From: Veterinaerplatzvirus T145P1
Sequence record: OZ035765.1
DNA length: 45,062 nt
Reading direction: 5' to 3' (one strand)
Both the position numbers and the translations under genes were made by a program. This document shows positions 30-44,781 of this stretch, piece by piece. Each line of letters begins with the position of its first letter. The stretch's first letter is position 1. Below the pieces are notes generated by a model. That model had not been told where the DNA came from. It did not search any database and was given only the letters and a program-made list of their open reading frames with translations.

Positions 30-536
30 ATGAGCAAAGCAGCATTAAAGATGGGTGAGGGAAATTTCAAGGCGCTCTACAACAAGAAGTATGGCGATAT
101 TGCTATGGTGGCAATTAACCGCAAGTACACGCCTGAGGAAGTTTTCGATTTCGCCGTTAGGTACTTCTCATGGGCTGAAAGTACGGCAATCAAGGCCGCT
201 GAGACAGCATCATTTCAGGGCATGGTCACTGAACACCTCATACATAAACCTCGAGTATTCACATTAACCGGGCTGGCGCTCTTCATGGGTGTTAATATCA
301 ATAGGTTCGCTCGCTGGCGTACTGAGGCTGGATACTCTGACGTGATGGAATTCATTGATAACGTAATCTACGAGCAGAAATACCAGCTTGGCGTCGCAGG
401 CATCATCAACTCCACCATCGTTGGTAAAGAGCTTGGCATTGATAAGCCGCAGGAGATTACCATTAGCAACAACTCCACAGCTAACGACGTTGACAGCATG
501 AAGGAAGCGCTGGAATCTGTTATTGGTAAACTATAA
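30..536 (+). CDS. terminase small subunit (putative)
   Basis: 168-aa ORF directly upstream of the large terminase; RBS AAGGAGG before the ATG; position-based call. Confidence 0.55.
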   Translation: MSKAALKMGEGNFKALYNKKYGDIAMVAINRKYTPEEVFDFAVRYFSWAESTAIKAAETASFQGMVTEHLIHKPRVFTLTGLALFMGVNINRFARWRTEAGYSDVMEFIDNVIYEQKYQLGVAGIINSTIVGKELGIDKPQEITISNNSTANDVDSMKEALESVIGKL

Positions 537-9294: not shown

Positions 9295-9337
9295 TAGCAC
9301 TTTTTGCTAAAGCGGTTATTCAACTTTGCTGTATAGT
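9295..9337 (+). promoter_or_regulatory. conserved promoter/operator module
   Basis: TAGCACTTTTTGCTA, 22 bp, TATAGT, leader TACCTCATCGAAACGA. Confidence 0.5.
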
Positions 9338-9370
9338 TACCTCATCGAAACGAAATGAGAGATTAAAGAA

Positions 9371-9619
9371 ATGAATAACGTTAAAAACATCATCAAGCTC
9401 GCTGCGGTTCTGTTTGCTTTTTATGCGGTAGTTCAGATTGTAGACCCAACAGGTGAGGCTGATGCCAATATCAAGGCAAACAAATATACTGTTGAATTTG
9501 CTAAGGCTGAGCGAGCATGTCAGGAGCTTGTAGGTGGCAAAGTTGACCAAATCATGAAATACGGCAAAGAGGTTTGTAAGGACTCGGCTGCTAAGATTGC
9601 AAAAGAAAACACTAAGTAA
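9371..9619 (+). CDS. hypothetical small membrane/secreted protein (moron-like)
   Basis: 82 aa with N-terminal hydrophobic segment; own promoter module at 9295-9337. Confidence 0.5.
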   Translation: MNNVKNIIKLAAVLFAFYAVVQIVDPTGEADANIKANKYTVEFAKAERACQELVGGKVDQIMKYGKEVCKDSAAKIAKENTK

Positions 9620-20594: not shown

Positions 20595-20652
20595 TTGCAT
20601 ACACGTAACCGATGTAACTCGATGTATACAATCTCATCCGCGGAAAATGATA

Positions 20653-20678
20653 TACGCACTGTTACGCAAATTTACGCA
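20653..20678. repeat. three TACGCA motifs at exact 10-bp phasing
   Basis: TACGCA at 20653, 20663 and 20673. Confidence 0.6.
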
Positions 20679-20694
20679 TTGGTTACATTAAAAT

Positions 20695-20751
20695 ATCTAT
20701 ATATATCAACCTTTTACTCTTATTATTATTATATATATATTACTGTGTATA
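20695..20751. repeat. AT-rich block, copy 1 (divergent control region)
   Basis: ATCTATATATATCAACCTTTTACT-(ATT)n-ATATATAT-TACTGTGTATA; near-identical to 39509-39574. Confidence 0.7.
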
Positions 20752-20852
20752 TCATGTAACTACTTCTATAGAGTGTTCCGGTTATAATTTTAATATCATG
20801 TGGATTTATACAGTATTGCGCTGCAGCTATACCAATGCACCCTCAGCAATAA

Positions 20853-21251
20853 ATGATATACACGATATACACGATGGTTACATTGAGCTATAGCTGGGCC
20901 GAGATGCCAAAAAACGTAACTAGTGCCAATGCCTACACGGAATTACAAGGATTCACGCGTAAACTTAAATCAACGATTGGCAAAACCAATTGGACTGGTT
21001 ACGGTGCCGAATATATAGTTAACTCATCGAAAGCAAACAACCAGAGAGATACAGAAATGACCTACTACATTATCAAAGAGAAAAACAACGCACTGTTCGG
21101 TGATTGCTACTTTGGCGGCCCTGCTGGATATACCACAGATAAGAAAGAGGCTGACAGATTCGAGACTAAAGAAGAAGCCCGAGATGTGCTGACTGGTTAC
21201 TTCACTGAAGAAGATTTGAAGTCTGTTAAAGTGGTTAAGGTTAAGGAATAA
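20853..21251 (+). CDS. hypothetical protein (start uncertain)
   Basis: First ATGs lie inside the GATATACAC tandem repeat; alternative starts at about 20874 or further downstream. Confidence 0.35.
   Translation: MIYTIYTMVTLSYSWAEMPKNVTSANAYTELQGFTRKLKSTIGKTNWTGYGAEYIVNSSKANNQRDTEMTYYIIKEKNNALFGDCYFGGPAGYTTDKKEADRFETKEEARDVLTGYFTEEDLKSVKVVKVKE
20855..20872. repeat. tandem GATATACAC x2 (related copy at 39480-39502)
   Basis: GATATACACGATATACAC; related CGATATATACACACGATATACAA in the second control region. Confidence 0.6.
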
Positions 21252-24101: not shown

Positions 24102-26684
24102 TTAACCTATTTTAGTGTAAGTCCATTGGTATGTTGCAGCTCCCTTGGCAGTTATCCCGACAGTTCTTCCACTTACATCCATTGAAGTGAAAGCGCCAGT
24201 TTTTGTAATTGTTATTGATGATGTGGAACCATCAAAAAGTACGTCAGCAATTACACTATAGTTAGGTCCAGCACCAGTAACCCAGGTCGAAACCTTGTAT
24301 AAACCAGCGTTGTTTGGCAACTCAAAAAGACCAGTTGAAACATTCGCCTGAACAGCCATCGCGCCCTTTCCGGTGTACACACCGTCAGTTTTAAGACCTA
24401 ATGATGAATATGTTTGCTTATAGCCACCAATGATGGCACCACCCATAGGTTCAGTAAACCAGTTCACATTACCCTGACTAACAACAGATATCGCTGGAGA
24501 CCCCCCTTTAGCTGACTGAAACCTACCGCTTAAAATGTCAATTCTAGATGCTGAGTCCTGGGCGTAGATAGTTACAGGATACCCACCAGAACCAGTGTAA
24601 ACCAAGCCGTTATCATTAATGTCATCTTCAGACGAGTCAATGATTACATGGGAAGTTCCAGACGCCTTGATGAACGAAACAACACCGCTAGAACCAGCAC
24701 CTGTTGTTCTAACTTCATTCTTCCATGATGTTAGGCCTGAAATTCTGCCATTTGAGTTATTAAACCTAATCAGGCAACAATCTTGCGATCCGTTGGTGTC
24801 AATAATGTTACCTTCAACGTCCATCCCTAGTATGTTTACGCTATGGCTGTTGATGAAGTTAATCCCAGCACCACCGTAAGAACCAGATGTTGATGATATA
24901 TTACTGGCATCCATTGCGCAGTTAATCATTGTAACGCTCATTACCGAACCAAATTCATAAGGTGAAATGCAATCTGATGCGTAACAAGTCTCAAGCAATA
25001 TTGTCGTTCCTGTCGCCTTTATGAATCCAGTCCTGCAATTCCTGGCCCAAACATTCTGTAGCTTAGTCTGGTATGTTCCAGTGGTGTCCGTGTAGCAACC
25101 CCATGCTCCATGGACTGTGCAATCTTTGATACATGAATTTTCTAGCCCTGTTGCAGAACCAACATTAGAAACGAAGTTAAATGCTATCTTTTGATCATTC
25201 CCTGATGCTGAGGTAGGTGTAGTGCCTGGGTTATAAAAAATGTAAAGTCCCTCAATAAACACTTGATACATTCTTATGTTTTGCGCATCACCCTGAACCA
25301 GGGCGAATAGGTTTATGTTCCCATCAACTGAGATAAATGTTTGCGCCCTGTTAATTTGGTTTGTTCCCTCGCCAATAATTCTTGTACTGTTGCCAATCCT
25401 CACCGTCCTGTTAATGAACATAAAACCTTTTGGTATGTATACAGTTTTACCGGTATTAACTGCCGCCTGAAGCGCAACTGCGTCAAGTGACTCGTTAAGG
25501 TTTGATGCAAATGGATAAACAAACCGCGCATCCTCAATTGTCGAGAATTTAGATGAAAGAGGAACTAAAGTACCATTGTTTGTAGCACCAAAATCCATGA
25601 CGTTAACAAAGTCACCAAGTTTACTATCCTTACTCCTTTCTACAAATGAGGCCAATGTAGATTTGTAATTCATCGAACTGAATTGTGATTGAGCCTCTGT
25701 CTTTGAATAAACATCTGATCTTGGGTAAACCTCTGATTTTGAATAAACATCAAGCAAACCCCTAGCTCTTTCAGCAGTAGCGCCGCCAACCGACTCCCCG
25801 CCTTCAACCATAATGTATTCGCGTAAGTAGAAGTTTCTTGATCCTTTAGCGCCCGTCATCCTGAGGTGAGTAGCCCTATATGATGAATCAGAATTCAATG
25901 CCGGATATATATCAATCTCATAAGAGCCTTGAGCTCCACTTGTGCCCCTAACACATATAAAAAGCGTAGCGTTGGCTGTAGTGTATGTCGCAGCTAGTGA
26001 TGCTGGAACGTTTGTCATGTTAGATACTACAACTCGATAATTACCACCACTTTTAAATTCAACTTGCTGCCAATCCAATGATGGCATAGCTATTGTCGAT
26101 GTGCTTGCGATACCCTCATTGGCTAGAGTAACCAAAGTTGCAGCATCACCAGCGTTGGCAATGACATTAACTGTGTTGTTGTATGCCTCCTGCGCACTAC
26201 TTGCGCTTGATTCAGCCTGAGCCTTGCTTGTAGCGGCAGCTTGCTGGCTGGCAGATGCAGCCGATTCGCTTGAAGCCGCATTTGTTTCGCTTGCCTTCGC
26301 CTCATCAACTAATCGTTGTAACTTATCGAAATCAAAATCACCAGATTCAGCCAACTCAACAAGTGACGCAACCTCAGTTTCACGTGACTGATAGTAACGA
26401 AGAGTTTCCGCAACATCCTGAGCTAGCCCCTGAACGGTAATTCCATCATGCGCAAGGATAGCGTAACCAGTTCCAGCAGGAACAGTTTCGGAGTTAGGGT
26501 TGTAAACATTAATCTGCGTATCGCTGATAATTTCTGAGATGGTGTAAATCTGTACTGGTTCAGTTTTAAATACAATGGTTGCACCTACACGAATCAGTGT
26601 AAGAGGTGCTTTCCATGTTGTCCCGACGCCAGTCACCTCACCACTTGCTGCTAGAGAAGCTGTTCCTGAGTCATAAATTGCCAT
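24102..26684 (-). CDS. tail fibre / tailspike with beta-helix-like domain
   Basis: Probable ATG start at 26684; N-terminal anchor-like region, Ala/Ser-rich coiled coil, then repetitive G/N/S/T-rich region resembling a parallel beta-helix. Confidence 0.75.
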   Translation of the reverse strand: MAIYDSGTASLAASGEVTGVGTTWKAPLTLIRVGATIVFKTEPVQIYTISEIISDTQINVYNPNSETVPAGTGYAILAHDGITVQGLAQDVAETLRYYQSRETEVASLVELAESGDFDFDKLQRLVDEAKASETNAASSESAASASQQAAATSKAQAESSASSAQEAYNNTVNVIANAGDAATLVTLANEGIASTSTIAMPSLDWQQVEFKSGGNYRVVVSNMTNVPASLAATYTTANATLFICVRGTSGAQGSYEIDIYPALNSDSSYRATHLRMTGAKGSRNFYLREYIMVEGGESVGGATAERARGLLDVYSKSEVYPRSDVYSKTEAQSQFSSMNYKSTLASFVERSKDSKLGDFVNVMDFGATNNGTLVPLSSKFSTIEDARFVYPFASNLNESLDAVALQAAVNTGKTVYIPKGFMFINRTVRIGNSTRIIGEGTNQINRAQTFISVDGNINLFALVQGDAQNIRMYQVFIEGLYIFYNPGTTPTSASGNDQKIAFNFVSNVGSATGLENSCIKDCTVHGAWGCYTDTTGTYQTKLQNVWARNCRTGFIKATGTTILLETCYASDCISPYEFGSVMSVTMINCAMDASNISSTSGSYGGAGINFINSHSVNILGMDVEGNIIDTNGSQDCCLIRFNNSNGRISGLTSWKNEVRTTGAGSSGVVSFIKASGTSHVIIDSSEDDINDNGLVYTGSGGYPVTIYAQDSASRIDILSGRFQSAKGGSPAISVVSQGNVNWFTEPMGGAIIGGYKQTYSSLGLKTDGVYTGKGAMAVQANVSTGLFELPNNAGLYKVSTWVTGAGPNYSVIADVLFDGSTSSITITKTGAFTSMDVSGRTVGITAKGAATYQWTYTKIG

Positions 26685-26705
26685 TGTGTAGAGTCTCCAT
26701 TTGTA

Positions 26706-26745
26706 AAATAGCACGAATTGCTAAAGTGGATTGTAGCATCTTTGA
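26706..26745 (-). promoter_or_regulatory. palindromic operator copy at tail fibre 5' end
   Basis: TAGCACGAATTGCTA lies between a TACAAT-like box and the fibre start; operator rather than promoter geometry. Confidence 0.35.
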
Positions 26746-26771: not shown

Positions 26772-27698
26772 TTAGTCTAGCAATTCGCTTGCCTTGTATA
26801 TTCGCTTTCTTATGCCTGACTTGAAAAAATTATCATCATTTGGCATTACCACATCAAGATCGCGATCGTCAGCAACGGCGAGTAAATCAAAATCGTTGCG
26901 AGTACAAGCGATGCGTAACTTGTATTTTCTAAGCGAGTAAGCAACCATTTCCATGTTGTAGCTGGAGTAGCAAACAAGCACGCAGCGGTTGCCAGTAGCA
27001 ATGTGAACACGATAGCCGTCAATGAGATTATCGACCAGATAAGCGTACTCATCATCCTTAAAGGAACCAATAACAGCAACAGACTGGCGAGTATAATCTT
27101 TTGCAGCATAACTAACATCTCCCTCTTCATTGATAAACATTACATTACACATTTCTTCTGATATACCGTCATTATAAGCCATAAAACACGGTACTGCGTG
27201 TATCAGTTCGCCTGATTTTGTCCTGCCAACATCAAAACCAAACTCGCTATAGATGCCCTCGTATGTGCTGAGCGGAGTTGATTCCACTCTTTCCGTCCTT
27301 TCCATTATCTCTAAGCATCTTTCGTGGTCAATCTGAGCGCCCATTTTGTATGGTGATGTTCTTGAAGCTCTTTTGTTTGCTTTTGATATAACCTCTACTG
27401 GAACGAGATTCAGCCAATCACCAAGCGTATCTATTGTTTCACTATAACTCATTCCAGAACACTTCATTACCCAACCAACACCAGAATCATTTCCACACTG
27501 GTTGCATATTGCTGCGCCATTTCCCTTTTCTTGACCTAACTCATCAGTGAAGCGAAACCTATCCTTGCCAAAGCAGTAAGGGCACGGACCATGTTTCTTG
27601 CTGAGATTCTCCTTTGTCCATCCAAGATGCGATGAGTAGAACTCACTCCACATCCCTTTCATCTTGGCTATCACTTCGTTCTTATCATGTTGACTCAT
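26772..27698 (-). CDS. DNA primase (zinc-finger type, putative)
   Basis: Start moved to ATG 27698 (GGAGGT RBS); CPYC...CNQC zinc ribbon; acidic DxD-type motifs. Confidence 0.6.
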   Translation of the reverse strand: MSQHDKNEVIAKMKGMWSEFYSSHLGWTKENLSKKHGPCPYCFGKDRFRFTDELGQEKGNGAAICNQCGNDSGVGWVMKCSGMSYSETIDTLGDWLNLVPVEVISKANKRASRTSPYKMGAQIDHERCLEIMERTERVESTPLSTYEGIYSEFGFDVGRTKSGELIHAVPCFMAYNDGISEEMCNVMFINEEGDVSYAAKDYTRQSVAVIGSFKDDEYAYLVDNLIDGYRVHIATGNRCVLVCYSSYNMEMVAYSLRKYKLRIACTRNDFDLLAVADDRDLDVVMPNDDNFFKSGIRKRIYKASELLD

Positions 27699-27753
27699 AA
27701 TTACCTCCATAAACAATAAAGGCACTATACATAATGCAAAGCGCCATTGTTTA

Positions 27754-28233
27754 TCAAATCGTGCTGTTTTGCTCTTTCTTCTTTTGGTTCTCTAATTTTA
27801 TCTTGCGCCATGAACGACACTCTGGCTTAGTGGCTAATTCAGCCTCAGTGACGACTCGCAGCATATGGCGCTTTTTGCACCGAAGTGTCAGCGGTTTCCC
27901 GTTGCCGTCGAATTGCAGGTCTGGTCGGCAGAATGTAGCGCGAAAACCTTCTCCATTTCGCTTATAGTAGTTGTGAGAAAGTTGAGCCCCACGCGCAGAA
28001 ATCATACCGCGCTTAAACCATTCTTCTACAGCCTGTGGTGTTACCTTTAACTGCTTTGCGATATTCGCCTTTGTGCCGAAGAAATCAAGAACTATCTCTA
28101 GCCGCGCGCGTAGCCCGGCTCTTACTTCATCTTTTAAAACATAGTAGCCTGAAGGTCGTTTACGTTGCTTTTTGTCTTCGGTGCGGATGGTTCCGTTATT
28201 GCCGTTAATTGTTCGCTTGTCGACTGTATTCAT
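27754..28233 (-). CDS. HTH DNA-binding protein (Cro/YdaS-like), candidate early regulator
   Basis: FGTKANIAKQLKVTPQAVEEWFKRG helix-turn-helix; own canonical sigma70 promoter; palindromic operator abuts its RBS. Confidence 0.55.
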   Translation of the reverse strand: MNTVDKRTINGNNGTIRTEDKKQRKRPSGYYVLKDEVRAGLRARLEIVLDFFGTKANIAKQLKVTPQAVEEWFKRGMISARGAQLSHNYYKRNGEGFRATFCRPDLQFDGNGKPLTLRCKKRHMLRVVTEAELATKPECRSWRKIKLENQKKKEQNSTI

Positions 28234-35594: not shown

Positions 35595-37178
35595 TCACCC
35601 CAGCAATCTCGGATTAATGTAAACTTTATCACCAATCAGGCACGTATAGTTTTTCTCATCAAGCATTGGCAGTAAGTGATCTTTAATCTTCGTCATCACT
35701 CCAGCCTGAGCCTCGAACGGCTTAACCTTTCGCGCCGCTTCATACAATGAGCGAATGCCAACAACACCCTTACCGTTTTTACCCTGCTTGATCAGGATAT
35801 CAATCAGCTTATTCATCTCGGCATTGTCGCCAGCGTGACCAGCCGCGTTGGCAGATGACAAATAAGTCTTGCTAAGCTCCTGGAACATGATTACAGCTTC
35901 TTGCATGGTATCAAGCTCAATCTCTCTGGATTTCTGTGGACTCCCACCGCTAGGGTTGAACCAGTTGCGCACTGTGTGAAGAACAGCAGCAATCCTGATA
36001 GCCTGCTTATCGAATTTACCCAGCGCGCCGCGCAACATTGTGTGGGAATACTTACCGCCGTCCGCAAGGTGCGGCTCCATTTCCTGACGTGCCCGGTTTA
36101 GATATTTCATCGCTGAGTTGCTAACCGTCAACTTTACTTCTTGCTCATTCATGATTTCGTGAACCAGGCGGAAGTAGTTAGCCTTAAGCTCACCATCAAT
36201 TGGCTCGTAAGTTGAGTTGCCATTCTCATCGACGAATACACGCTCGCCAAGGAATGATTTTTCACGCACAAGTAGAAAACGTTCCGACACACCAATACCA
36301 CGAGCACCAGCATTCATGATTGCGTTTATTGTCTCATCTTGCGCAATTACAGAGATGCATCCCATAGCGACGAAGCTCATGTTGTTTTCTGCGTTCGCAC
36401 GCGCAATGGACACGTTACCAGCATCCCACGCCTTGAGTACGAGCTCGCTGTTCGTTTTCTTTGAGCCATCACCATAGGTCATACCTAGCAGAGAGTTCAC
36501 GCTCGTTGCTTCATCAGAGATAACCGCGAAGTTGCCCTGGCGGTTGTTTATTCGCGCAAGACCTTCAGGTGTCGTATCTGATACTGGAAATACGATATCG
36601 CACATCTTTTCCAGCTTCTCCTCTAAATCCTCTTTCTCCTCAAAGAGAGACGCCATCTCTGATGGTGACTTTTCCTGCTTCATCTCTTTGGATAATGCAG
36701 ACAGCTTTGCCATAATCTTTTTACGCTCACGCTTTCGCACTTCATTAAGCCGCTCAGTCTCAGCAATCATTGGCGCAATAGAAAGCGAGTTAATTGCTGA
36801 TTTACCTGTGGATGGTGGCTGACTGGTTACTACGTATAGAGAGGTCGGTTGCTGGGTTCCGTGATACTCTACTGTAAAACGTCCCAGCATGGCGGCAGAA
36901 ATACACCCCAGAAAGTGCATATAAGCTGAAGACTCTGGAAATTGAACAGAACGGGCAATATTGGCTGACAGCTTACCAACAACATCAATGTCATTACCGA
37001 GTGAGATTACGGGATACTTGTCATTAGCCGCATCAATCTCAACTGGCGCTTTCCAGAATGATTGAGACTGACGATATCCATTGGCATTAATAGCGACGCG
37101 CAGGGGTGGGAGGTTGTCTGCGGCAGCAATTGCCATAACCTGTTCAACAGATAGCTTATCTTCGTTGAAATCAAACAT
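35595..37178 (-). CDS. P-loop NTPase of unknown function
   Basis: Walker A-like SQPPSTGKS and Walker B-like FAVISDEA separated by a charged coiled-coil insertion; own promoter module upstream. Confidence 0.6.
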   Translation of the reverse strand: MFDFNEDKLSVEQVMAIAAADNLPPLRVAINANGYRQSQSFWKAPVEIDAANDKYPVISLGNDIDVVGKLSANIARSVQFPESSAYMHFLGCISAAMLGRFTVEYHGTQQPTSLYVVTSQPPSTGKSAINSLSIAPMIAETERLNEVRKRERKKIMAKLSALSKEMKQEKSPSEMASLFEEKEDLEEKLEKMCDIVFPVSDTTPEGLARINNRQGNFAVISDEATSVNSLLGMTYGDGSKKTNSELVLKAWDAGNVSIARANAENNMSFVAMGCISVIAQDETINAIMNAGARGIGVSERFLLVREKSFLGERVFVDENGNSTYEPIDGELKANYFRLVHEIMNEQEVKLTVSNSAMKYLNRARQEMEPHLADGGKYSHTMLRGALGKFDKQAIRIAAVLHTVRNWFNPSGGSPQKSREIELDTMQEAVIMFQELSKTYLSSANAAGHAGDNAEMNKLIDILIKQGKNGKGVVGIRSLYEAARKVKPFEAQAGVMTKIKDHLLPMLDEKNYTCLIGDKVYINPRLLG

Positions 37179-37251: not shown

Positions 37252-37418
37252 TTAATTGTTCTTAATCCACTTTAGACACATCCACAATCCAGCCCCATAG
37301 AATGCAATCTTGAGAACTTCAGCTAAGACAAGGATAATAAAGTATCCACCACCAAGTAAATCAATCATTTTTTAATCTCCATTTCCACAATTTCATAACT
37401 TATGTAATTATTTATCAT

Positions 37419-37604
37419 TCAAATAAGTGATTTTGGGTATGTCTTCATATGATTCTTGGCGGAATCTTCATCAAGATGTGCTGATATGTTGTGAAAATTG
37501 TATTCATAATCCATGCCAATTAGTATGTATATCTTATCGTGAGCATTAATGAAGTTATTTGATTTTATTTCCCCAAGCGACCAGCCCTTTCCTTTTCTAA
37601 TCAT
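37419..37604 (-). CDS. hypothetical protein
   Basis: 61 aa; ATGA overlap with the upstream gene. Confidence 0.4.
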   Translation of the reverse strand: MIRKGKGWSLGEIKSNNFINAHDKIYILIGMDYEYNFHNISAHLDEDSAKNHMKTYPKSLI

Positions 37605-38964: not shown

Positions 38965-39175
38965 TTTGTTACCTTTTGAGTTTTTTTATTATCGACATCT
39001 CTTCAACGTACTCGCTACAACTCGGGATTTTACTCCCGGCCCGGCATCCTAACAAAAGGACCCGATCGGCGCTTTGGTGGGTGAGGTAACGCTTCCTCAC
39101 ATTGCGCGGTAGTATTTACTCCTTTTGGTCTCTTTCGAGAGTGACTCAGAGTCTGCTACCGTGTCGATGAGATTA

Positions 39176-39219
39176 AGTATACGCATAGTTAGCCACACTG
39201 TCTTTAGCAAAAAGTGCTA
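39176..39219 (-). promoter_or_regulatory. conserved promoter/operator module (minus-strand small-gene operon)
   Basis: Minus strand TAGCACTTTTTGCTA, 23 bp, TATACT; followed by about 200 nt leader. Confidence 0.45.
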
Positions 39220-39232
39220 TTCGTTAGATTTA

Positions 39233-39321
39233 TGTATTGTTGCAGATATTGCAATGATTCACTTGATTATTGCACATACAGCAATATTGCTTCCGATGCA
39301 ATGATGTTTTTGATTGTTGCG
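39233..39321. repeat. iteron-like array of ATTG(N)TGCA / ATTGCAAT motifs
   Basis: At least six related motifs spaced 14-18 bp apart. Confidence 0.5.
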
Positions 39322-39508
39322 AAAAGTGAAATTAAGTGGTGAGTGAGTGAATGAAAGATGGATGGACTACCATACAAGTTGATTTTTACCAATCTATGGG
39401 AGCCTCACGGATATACGCGTATCCTCCGTATACTCAGTGTCGTCACAAAAGTTAGTGACCACTAACCTACGTTTTTACGCGATATATACACACGATATAC
39501 AATATAAT

Positions 39509-39574
39509 ATCTATATATATCAACCTTTTACTTTATTATTATTATTATTATTATATATATGTATACTGTGTATA
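39509..39574. repeat. AT-rich block, copy 2 with longer (ATT)n tract
   Basis: Same core as 20695-20751 with two to three extra ATT units. Confidence 0.7.
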
Positions 39575-39614
39575 CCGGTAATTGGTGAGATTATTGATAT
39601 GTTCCGCGCAGATA

Positions 39615-39632
39615 TTCTGACACCTGTCAGAA
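39615..39632. promoter_or_regulatory. perfect 8-bp-arm inverted repeat TTCTGACA-CC-TGTCAGAA
   Basis: Directly readable palindrome downstream of the AT-rich block and upstream of the 39850 gene. Confidence 0.45.
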
Positions 39633-39849
39633 ATGGATGGCATTGTAGGAATAAAAGGCACATATATAGGGAATGGCTTCAAAAATCTGTACACATCGGA
39701 TACGGCACATTTACAACCAGCAATGGAGGGGCCTCTGGAGGCAAGAAGCGTATCCATGATAAAATAGACGAAAATATACATTGACCGACACGTAAATAGA
39801 TGGCAATATAGCAGTCACTGAAACGAAGTAAAACAAACGAGGTATCAAC

Positions 39850-40398
39850 ATGCAGAAAGTAACACTAGGTGAAGTTATCCGTGAGATGGTGCGCAACGCG
39901 ATGGTGTCCGAGAGTGGTGAGTTTAAAGTTCCGGTTAGCCAGATATTCAAACTGGTTCGAGGCAAGGAATACCCTGAAATGGTGTATGACGAAGATACTA
40001 GTGAGATCCTCAACCTGGCAGATAGGGCGATGCCGGAACTAAAGAACTCATACATCTATAACACAGTGTCGAGAATGACAGAGCTTCGCGATGCTAATAA
40101 GCGAGCGAGATATAAGTTCATCTGGATTGATGATGACGGAGAGCAAACAAGGCCCGGTAGCTTCGACGGTGATGGCGCTGATAAATACCTGGTCATATAC
40201 ATTGAGAACGGCGCGCACTGGACTGGGAGTCGCGAAAAGAAAAAGCAGGAAGCGGAGAAAGAGGCGGCTATCATTGAAAAGTTCAAGTCTAGACTGCTCA
40301 AGCTGTCACCAAGTGTTGCTGGCTTGGAAGGTGAAGAACTTAAGGGCGCTGTTACAATGATTAATGCTTATCAGGAAATGATTAAGGAGACTAAGTAG
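39850..40398 (+). CDS. hypothetical protein
   Basis: 182 aa; first plus-strand gene after the divergent control region. Confidence 0.5.
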   Translation: MQKVTLGEVIREMVRNAMVSESGEFKVPVSQIFKLVRGKEYPEMVYDEDTSEILNLADRAMPELKNSYIYNTVSRMTELRDANKRARYKFIWIDDDGEQTRPGSFDGDGADKYLVIYIENGAHWTGSREKKKQEAEKEAAIIEKFKSRLLKLSPSVAGLEGEELKGAVTMINAYQEMIKETK

Positions 40399-44704: not shown

Positions 44705-44781
44705 GCTCGAGTGGCGAAAGTGGATATCGCAAGAGACTTCTAATCTCTAGATTGCTGGTTCGAATCCAGCCTCGAGCGCCA
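44705..44781 (+). tRNA. tRNA-Arg (anticodon UCU)
   Basis: Hand-folded cloverleaf: 7-bp acceptor GCTCGAG/CTCGAGC, D-arm GCGA/TCGC with GG loop, anticodon stem AGAGA/TCTCT with loop CTTCTAA, T-arm GCTGG-TTCGAAT-CCAGC, discriminator G, encoded CCA. Confidence 0.85.

Follow-up and report, generated by a model that had tools for sequence, protein, structure and literature searches.

We have analysed an untranslated region of Veterinaerplatzvirus T145P1 (record OZ035765.1); the window, as used here, is the whole stretch of 45,062 nucleotides. The window is identical (100%) to that phage over the ~1-kb stretch around the region, and its homologous part, ~39199-39900, shows 88-99% identity to other coliphages of the Drexlerviridae, Braunvirinae. 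Judged by its sequence, the source phage is a T1-like coliphage (Drexlerviridae, Braunvirinae). The region is a gene-free gap of 885 bp, bounded on one side by the start codon of a leftward operon (38964) and on the other by the gene that opens a rightward operon (39850). The leftward operon carries a DUF3987 helicase (35595-37178). The rightward operon of small early genes is headed by a DUF7174 gene (39850-40398) and continues into terS (30-536) and terL at the window start. With slightly more confidence than doubt, we consider that the gap is a composite control region with three functions: a packaging start site (pac) in module A, an origin-like module B, and promoters that bracket both modules.

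On the coding status of the gap, an earlier note on this DNA had found no convincing open reading frame (ORF), and this is upheld by codon-position statistics, indels and stops. When the window was aligned with four close relatives, the DUF7174 gene showed 45, 25 and 126 variable sites at codon positions 1, 2 and 3 and zero indels, while the longest intergenic ORF (39437-39784) showed 33, 35 and 35 and contained 1-nt indels and in-frame stops among the relatives. A coding or small-gene explanation is ruled out by these codon-position and indel statistics. Homology to the relatives starts abruptly at 39200. Rightward from there, 54-80% of columns per 50 bp are invariant, save 44% at 39700-39749; the corresponding values are 40-84% in the adjacent gene and 10% left of 39200. 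The alignment indicates a region that is non-coding yet constrained, and as conserved as the neighbouring genes. An Rfam search of the region returned zero families, with best scores of 21.4 and 15.7 bits, far under the gathering threshold, and no copies of the region (for example in satellites borrowing the site) were found in E. coli genomes.

A comparative alignment of 15 phages (Braunvirinae, Rogunavirinae, Nouzillyvirus and T1) divides the region into module A (39225-39408) and module B (39409-39580). The left part holds the following features:

~39225-39408: module A, with leftward promoter element, invariant GATTTAT, four palindromes and an asymmetric block
39176-39220, minus strand: putative leftward promoter PL, made of an 18-nt element ATAGCACTTTTTGCTAAA (39220-39203) and a -10 TATACT (39181-39176)
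39226-39233, plus strand: AGATTTAT, the motif by which the TLS authors placed pac, from its likeness to the P22 pac
39240-39331, no strand: array of four 15-bp palindromes TTGC-N7-GCAA (that is, TTGCW-N5-WGCAA)
39334-39408, plus strand: conserved asymmetric block GTGGTGAGTGAGTGAATGAAAGATGGATGGACTACCATACAAGTTGATTTT (GTGAGTGAGTGAATGAAAGATGGATGGACTACCATACAAGTTGATTTT), which may hold the first packaging cut

The repeats of the array had been described in the earlier note as ATTG(N)TGCA iterons at 14-18 bp spacing. They are real repeats, but they are palindromes, three exact and one degenerate, and not direct iterons. The exact sites lie at 39240-39254, 39270-39284 and 39287-39301; the fourth, at 39317-39331, has GAAA for GCAA, one mismatch. 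Of the four exact TTGC-N7-GCAA matches in the 45 kb, three are packed into 62 bp, against an expectation of 1.65 per genome, and from this rate we estimated a probability of ~4e-6 for the clustering of the three. The half-site centres are spaced 10, 20, 10, 7, 10, 20 and 10 bp, and because these spacings mirror one another the array is two-fold symmetric about the point between 39285 and 39286. Offsets of 0, 30, 47 and 77 are fixed across Braunvirinae, Rogunavirinae and Nouzillyvirus. In the 15-phage alignment, 23 of 32 half-site columns are invariant, compared with 7 of 28 spacer columns (p = 6e-5); conserved half-sites with free spacers are the pattern expected of a protein-binding site. The lone fourth exact match of the genome lies at 100-114, inside terS (TTGCTATGGTGGCAA). 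It is common to vB_EcoS-12210I and is not in T1, TLS or the other clades, and since only this closest relative keeps it, it is probably due to chance.

An alignment against related phages had been proposed earlier as a check of the array. The array is kept in Braunvirinae, Rogunavirinae and Nouzillyvirus, and T1 has two palindromes of the TTGC-N7-GCAA type, 30 bp apart, but TLS-like phages have only GATTTGATT-type direct repeats at this position and no palindromes. Other Drexlerviridae clades show either TTTC-N7-GCAA twice, 30 bp apart, or GTGATT-N5-AATCAC palindromes, and these clade-specific arrays, the GATTTGATT repeats included, lie 250-400 bp left of the AT-rich block. Because each clade carries its own array at the same place, the comparison suggests that recognition specificity may have been switched between Drexlerviridae clades. 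Beside the array, the GATTTAT within AGATTTAT is invariant among the relatives, and the 8-mer itself is not enriched genome-wide (4 found, 2.5 expected). We also considered an IHF-like site at 39372-39384 and rejected it, as it fails the consensus.

Genome ends of relatives map beside this array. According to the TLS paper, T1-like phages package headfuls from a pac site, and the SU57 paper places the pac of T1-like phages in this untranslated region. For phage MSK, PhageTerm placed the start of headful packaging, running forward, at record position 36,862 (p = 1.6e-9, with peaks within 20 nt). In MW057918 this terminus reads GATGGATGGACTA up to the end and CCATACAAGTTGATTTT after it, which corresponds to the junction of 39369 and 39370 in the window. 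The SU57 end was picked from PhageTerm candidates by an abrupt step in read depth, and the record boundary, CAAGTTGATTTTA followed by CCAATC, corresponds to the junction of 39388 and 39389. The two ends are 19 bp apart, and lie 38 and 57 bp right of the fourth palindrome. The record ends of UDF157lw, CEB_EC3a and ZL19 map to ~39362, ~39405 and ~39408, respectively. The T1 record has a 2.8-kb terminal repeat from position 1, which is the first base of GTTGCATGGTGTGCAAC, a palindrome of the array type, and the TLS record begins at the restriction-mapped pac, in the homologous repeat region. We consider module A to be the pac region and not an origin, because the relatives' ends map beside the array and the T1 and TLS records open here; this location of pac is well supported. 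The TLS paper describes a single submolar pac fragment, and the palindrome cluster occurs once in the genome studied here, with no match to module A at 20.6 kb, where module B has a second copy (see below). For the family, pac was known at a coarse scale, and it is narrowed here to specific motifs.

These observations bear on the earlier interpretation, in which the whole region is one origin, with the ATTG..TGCA array as iterons and the AT-rich block as unwinding element. The repeats do adjoin the least stable DNA of the genome between divergent promoters, and replication genes sit in the leftward operon, the helicase gene being 1.8 kb from the region. However, the primase that was called nearby is encoded at 26772-27725, a distance of 11 kb. 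The array consists of palindromes, 160-250 bp separate it from the AT block, and the second copy of the AT-rich module has no such array; moreover, the relatives' genome ends fall between the array and the AT block, and T1 and TLS were opened here at a mapped pac. We consider a single origin improbable. GC skew turns at each change of gene orientation throughout the window, and since it tracks gene orientation everywhere, it is uninformative on the origin.

The protein that would read module A is encoded at the other end of the window:

30-536, plus strand: small terminase TerS of the P22 gp3 family (PF16677, E = 9e-13; phrog_606), candidate for acting at module A

In the packaging mechanism that we propose, packaging of concatemers would start at module A (~39225-39408), where the P22-gp3-type small terminase would assemble on the palindromes of the array and on the asymmetric block next to them. 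A first cut by the large terminase would follow at ~39360-39410, and headful packaging would proceed rightward. The palindromes would thus be a recognition platform for the terminase on the non-packaged side of pac. As far as the relatives' ends indicate, the first cut would fall within the 39334-39408 block.

Several points weigh against this assignment. The termini come from relatives, i.e. from phages other than Veterinaerplatzvirus T145P1, and only two of the five record ends (MSK and SU57) have a stated method of determination. Position 1 of T1 is at a palindrome, not 50 bp right of one. Furthermore, palindromes suggest a dimeric helix-turn-helix (HTH) binder, and the phage encodes a Cro-like regulator (27754-28233); a comparison of the TerS N-terminus with the palindrome type over 42 loci favoured neither TerS nor this regulator. 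The palindromes could accordingly be operators for the Cro-like regulator or a host factor, which would control PL and early transcription, while the terminase reads other sequence nearby. Dimeric HTH proteins typically have palindromes like these, 15-17 bp long and spaced by 30 and 17 bp, and the sites lie just upstream of PL. In addition, TTGCA-N5-TGCAA differs by one base per half-site from the genome-wide element TAGCA-N5-TGCTA described below, i.e. half-site TTGCA on the pac side. Yet the sites overlap no recognisable promoter, and none of them lies at -42 from a -10; the T1 sites lie between two leftward promoter elements, and phages of the TLS type have the regulator and the promoter element but no palindromes. 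The array is also unique and adjoins the mapped ends. An operator cluster seems rather unlikely to us. Use of the palindromes as activator sites of hidden promoters was rejected, as a -10 at the right distance is absent. The region also differs from lambda-type operator arrays, in that no promoter overlaps the sites and the only HTH regulator gene is 11 kb away.

Compared with known headful phages (P22, SPP1 with pacL-pacC-pacR, and P1), module A resembles their pac sites as a unique cis site beside the first cut, from which headful packaging runs in one direction, with terminal redundancy. Short repeated elements lie beside the cut, as they do in SPP1 and P1, and as in P22, the small terminase belongs to the gp3 family. 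On the other hand, the P22 site lies inside terS, whereas the site here is non-coding and 5.7 kb upstream of terS, and P22 has an asymmetric 22-mer, GAAGATTTATCTGAAGTCGTTA, in contrast to the 15-bp palindromes here, whose array has two-fold symmetry. Only AGATTTAT at 39226-39233 resembles the P22 pac sequence, and a pac of the P22 type was not found.

To the right of the pac region, module B and the flanking promoter comprise the following:

39409-39424, no strand: left edge of module B, palindrome GGATATACGCGTATCC with core ATACGCGTAT (39413-39422)
39467-39504, plus strand: four phased (T/A)TAC(G/A)C units, candidate iterons, with TAC at 39468, 39476, 39487 and 39498
39495-39564, no strand: AT-rich block (90% A+T), candidate unwinding element
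39561-39580, minus strand: inverted units GTATACTGTGTATAC, closing module B and reading ATACACA and ATACATA on the minus strand
39615-39632, no strand: palindrome TTCTGACA CC TGTCAGAA, with 8-bp arms around CC, in close relatives and CJ19 only
39781-39809, plus strand: putative rightward promoter PR (TTGACC, 17 nt, (TGg)CAATAT), which would drive the DUF7174 gene at 39850

The two short hairpins reported earlier are both present at the left edge of module B (39409-39459). GTCAC-N8-GTGAC lies at 39442-39459, while GGATA-TACGCG-TATCC, which holds the perfect 10-bp palindrome ATACGCGTAT, lies at 39409-39424 and not near 39388. Relatives and the second copy of module B both keep its ACGCGT/ACACGT box. 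The palindrome at 39615-39632 had been called perfect; it is imperfect, as the CC between its arms is not symmetric. The tandem CGATATA repeat is present in two copies, at 39480 and 39493.

The candidate iterons read TACGT, TTACGCG, ATACACA and ATACAAT and are spaced 8, 11 and 11 bp; relatives have three to four TTACGC(C) units with a 10-11 bp period, followed by one or two inverted copies of the unit. The pattern [AT]TAC[GA]C[AG] has 44 matches in the genome, 12 of which fall in the two module copies (13 with the match at 39179 in PL). The AT-rich block with its microsatellite turned out stronger than had been claimed: no other 60-100 bp of the window are as AT-rich or as unstable as 39495-39564, which is ~5.5 standard deviations from the mean. 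It includes a TATAAT conserved among relatives (39503-39508) and a 27-bp core AATATCTATATATATCAACCTTTTACT (39506-39532). An exact match to the IHF consensus, TATCAACCTTTTA, lies at 39518-39530, and this consensus has only 4 matches in the genome. The run (TTA)7.3 at 39533-39554 was detected by TRF, and (TTA)5-7 is kept in all non-T1 relatives. No exact DnaA boxes were found in the region.

Unlike module A, module B is duplicated in the genome:

20596-20790, plus strand: second copy of module B, preceding the recE operon and a paralogue of 39409-39580

In this copy, 20650-20770 reads GATATACGCAC TGTTACGCAA ATTTACGCAT TGGTTACATT, followed by the core, a (TTA)n run and inverted units. Its TAC units lie at 20653, 20663, 20673 and 20684, and the core AATATCTATATATATCAACCTTTTACT at 20692-20718 is identical at 27 of 27 positions to that at 39506-39532. 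The stretch 20678-20777 is the second most extreme AT-rich and unstable stretch of the genome. The second copy contains no TTGC-N7-GCAA palindromes. It is 97% identical to the Rtp copy and forms a local peak of conservation (94-97%). Equivalent second copies occur in Rtp, T1 and TLS, upstream of recE in T1 and TLS, and the units TGTTCAC/GTGAACA are present in both module copies of TLS. No paralogy was found between the genes downstream of the two copies. Both copies thus contain at least three direct repeats in helical phase (39468, 39476, 39487 and 39498; 20653, 20663, 20673 and 20684) next to an easily melted AT-rich element (39495-39564; 20678-20777). The layout of iterons and AT-rich element that the earlier note recognised is present, in module B and not in the elements that it called iterons, which are the pac-side palindromes. 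As a separate observation, the start of ORF 20853-21251, as annotated, contains a tandem GATATACAC repeated 2.3 times (20855-20875) and a segment TACATTGAGCTATAGCTGGGC. In Rtp, the TACATTGAGCTATAGCTGGGC segment is non-coding and upstream of rtp1, and hence the start codon of ORF 20853-21251 may be placed too far upstream.

The existence of two copies also bears on packaging. Module B could be the encapsidated half of a bipartite pac, like pacR of SPP1 or the second hexamer set of P1, with the copy at 20.7 kb as a secondary or pseudo-pac. The pac sites of P1 and SPP1 have repeats on both sides of the cut. The cut here would lie between modules A and B, consistent with this precedent, and ATATA repeats were earlier linked to pac in T1 (MSK paper). 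Nevertheless, the second copy comes without module A in all genomes examined, only one submolar pac fragment has been described for TLS, and the cut is ~100 bp from the AT block. Because two copies of module B exist while TLS shows a single pac fragment, module B is unlikely to be pac, and we give a bipartite site little credence.

The main rival to an origin is that module B is a strong early promoter or enhancer cassette, with a UP-like AT tract, an IHF site and upstream activator sites, used for the rightward early and recE operons. Four observations count against an origin here. Both copies contain a sigma-70-like arrangement of TTTACT, 16-17 nt and TATTAT/TATATT; both precede rightward operons, and therefore a strong early promoter, with a UP element and an IHF site, would also be in keeping with them; in copy 1 the units are short as well as degenerate; and the two copies of T1 have in common only the TTAC(G/A)C core. 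T1-like phages depend on host RNA polymerase, which also suits a promoter. However, promoter-like matches are expected by chance in DNA of 90% A+T, and family-wide the conserved TATAAT has no -35 that is conserved in position. The AT block is not needed as promoter of the gene at 39850, because the conserved PR is already 40 bp from that gene. The conservation of ~170-200 bp at 94-97% exceeds what a promoter needs, and inverted units beyond the AT block are not a promoter feature. We consider a promoter cassette somewhat unlikely as the explanation of module B.

The origin reading of module B was examined further with the replication proteins of the phage, among which the helicase is of particular relevance:

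35595-37178, minus strand: DUF3987 replicative helicase of superfamily 6 (MCM-like), ending in a winged-helix domain, candidate for acting at module B

The MCM-like, superfamily 6 status of DUF3987 helicases is taken from published work (PMC4889955, PMC11724360). A model of the helicase reached a pLDDT of 88.9, and its only PDB matches were MCM2-7 and archaeal MCM (E = 4e-6 to 1e-3). The C-terminal domain of the model has the order helix-strand-helix-helix-strand-strand, and the winged-helix domain comprises residues ~450-526. Ring helicases of the MCM-like kind are often loaded where paired binding sites flank an AT-rich stretch. The primase (26772-27725) has a homologue in the primase part of P4 alpha (26% over 259 aa, E = 4e-12). 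Searching the PDB with the helicase and primase sequences gave nothing useful. Among the source phage, T1 and TLS, the N-terminal 50 and C-terminal 80 residues of the helicase are the most divergent; protein divergence among these three favours no protein as the one that reads the repeats.

The closest likeness in layout is with satellite P4. Its annotated ori (NC_001609) contains three TGTTCACC units at 10-11 bp and one inverted unit, separated by an AT-rich gap from two further units, and P4 also has crr as another cis region. Module B likewise has units with a 10-11 bp period, an AT-rich gap and further units, and there are two such cis regions per genome. The primase of the phage is a homologue of the primase domain of alpha, and in both systems a ring helicase ends in a DNA-binding domain. 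The differences are as follows. The unit of module B is TAC(G/A)C and not TGTTCACC, so that no type I repeat was found; the helicase is a separate protein of superfamily 6, whereas the superfamily 3 helicase of P4 is fused in alpha; and the copies of module B are 19 kb apart. In TLS, TGTTCAC(G)/GTGAACA (413-428, 28769, 28997) flanks both AT-rich modules and agrees with the type I repeat of P4, TGTTCACC (9310-9413), at 7 of 8 bases. The origins of pSC101, R6K gamma and lambda are also comparable, with phased direct repeats abutting an AT-rich element and an IHF-consensus match between. Unlike in those origins, there is here no initiator gene around or beside the site and no exact DnaA box, there are inverted units beyond the AT-rich element, and the module occurs twice.

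Given its resemblance in layout to P4 ori/crr, and given that an MCM-like helicase and a P4-alpha-like primase are encoded by the phage, we regard module B as a plausible replication origin, a proposal for which we hold belief and doubt to be evenly balanced. We infer that module B may fire replication in the following way, which also pairs proteins with sites. The DUF3987 helicase, by its winged-helix domain, or another phage protein would bind the module B units. IHF would bend the DNA, and the AT/(TTA)n block would be melted. Priming at module B would fall to the P4-alpha-like primase, and extension to host Pol III. In its most complete form, the proposal is that T1-like phages would have two paralogous origins, each with iterons, an IHF site and (TTA)n, fired by a self-loading MCM-like helicase and the P4-alpha-like primase; one of them would abut pac and hence lie in the terminal redundancy, and the array would be the terminase recognition sequence of the T1 family. 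We regard this combined picture as possible but doubtful. Two papers report that the origin of T1-like phages was not found, and in the literature on T1 the pac sequence is placed only approximately. For the replication origin of the family, so far unmapped, module B is the strongest candidate to date.

The modules would be bracketed by a leftward activator-type promoter and a rightward promoter with an extended -10, and the divergent promoters noted earlier were indeed recovered as PL and PR on either side of both modules. For PR, the -35 and the extended -10 are conserved and the spacer is variable, Rtp and CJ19 having TTGATA..TGGTAATAT; a consensus promoter scan of the window did not report PR. 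With up to 3 mismatches allowed, the ATAGCACTTTTTGCTAAA element of PL is matched 25 times in the genome, against 6.1 expected, and 19 of these matches differ from it by no more than 1-2 mismatches. The copy at PL is exact, and the element is conserved in 14 of 14 non-T1 relatives. It is one of ~19 good copies of the TLS 21-nt repeat (aaATAGCACnnnTTGnTAAAA; ATAGCACnnnTTGCTAAA), an intergenic repeat whose function is listed as an open question (PMC11447400). Copies lie, for example, at 2116, 9294, 26708, 30742 and 42323 on the plus strand and at 20595, 38039 and 39220 on the minus strand. When the copies are lined up, a (TGn)TATAGT-type -10 lies ~22 nt downstream, and the repeat itself is palindromic (TAGCA-N5-TGCTA), centred near -42. 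This is the position of a class II activator site. By analogy, the 21-nt repeat looks like a class II activator site, and the Cro-like HTH protein (27754-28233, minus strand) is the obvious candidate for its binder. A copy of the TLS repeat aaATAGCACnnnTTGnTAAAA heads the leftward operon here (39203-39220); it accounts for only the promoter part of the region.

The stretch 38965-39199 is a leader specific to Veterinaerplatzvirus T145P1. The 5' leader of the leftward operon (38965-39170, minus strand) is ~200 nt long in T145P1 records only, and ~60 nt in relatives. It folds into several hairpins (minimum free energy -59 kcal/mol, z = -2.6) and contains a 43-codon ORF that starts with GTG and is without a well-placed ribosome-binding site.

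Taken with the claims of the earlier note, the observation as a whole is partly confirmed, and its origin interpretation is partly supported, for elements other than those cited; a packaging start site had not been considered there. Nothing in the region is categorically new in kind, and module B is a new candidate origin, one of two copies. T1 is one of the seven classical T phages, and its relatives are common contaminants of laboratories and fermenters as well as candidates for therapy. The value of the analysis is that two old questions on T1-like phages are made directly testable on short segments, namely a 92-bp array and a ~50-bp cut zone for packaging, and two modules of ~170-200 bp for replication. 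The anatomy of these segments, their conservation, the uniqueness of the array, the duplication of module B and the positions of the relatives' ends were observed directly. The results could be of use in engineering T1-like phages and transducing vectors, in interpreting genome termini and in understanding how bacterial MCM-like (DUF3987) helicases are loaded.

Elsewhere in the window, the stretch 37357-37456, among small leftward genes, is the third most AT-rich of the genome. An 18-bp tandem repeat, TTGAATAAACATCTGATC, occurs 2.7 times at 25703-25751, inside a gene for 870 aa (24102-26714). The sole tRNA detected, a tRNA-Arg with anticodon TCT, lies at 44705-44781 on the plus strand, as in other T1-like phages.

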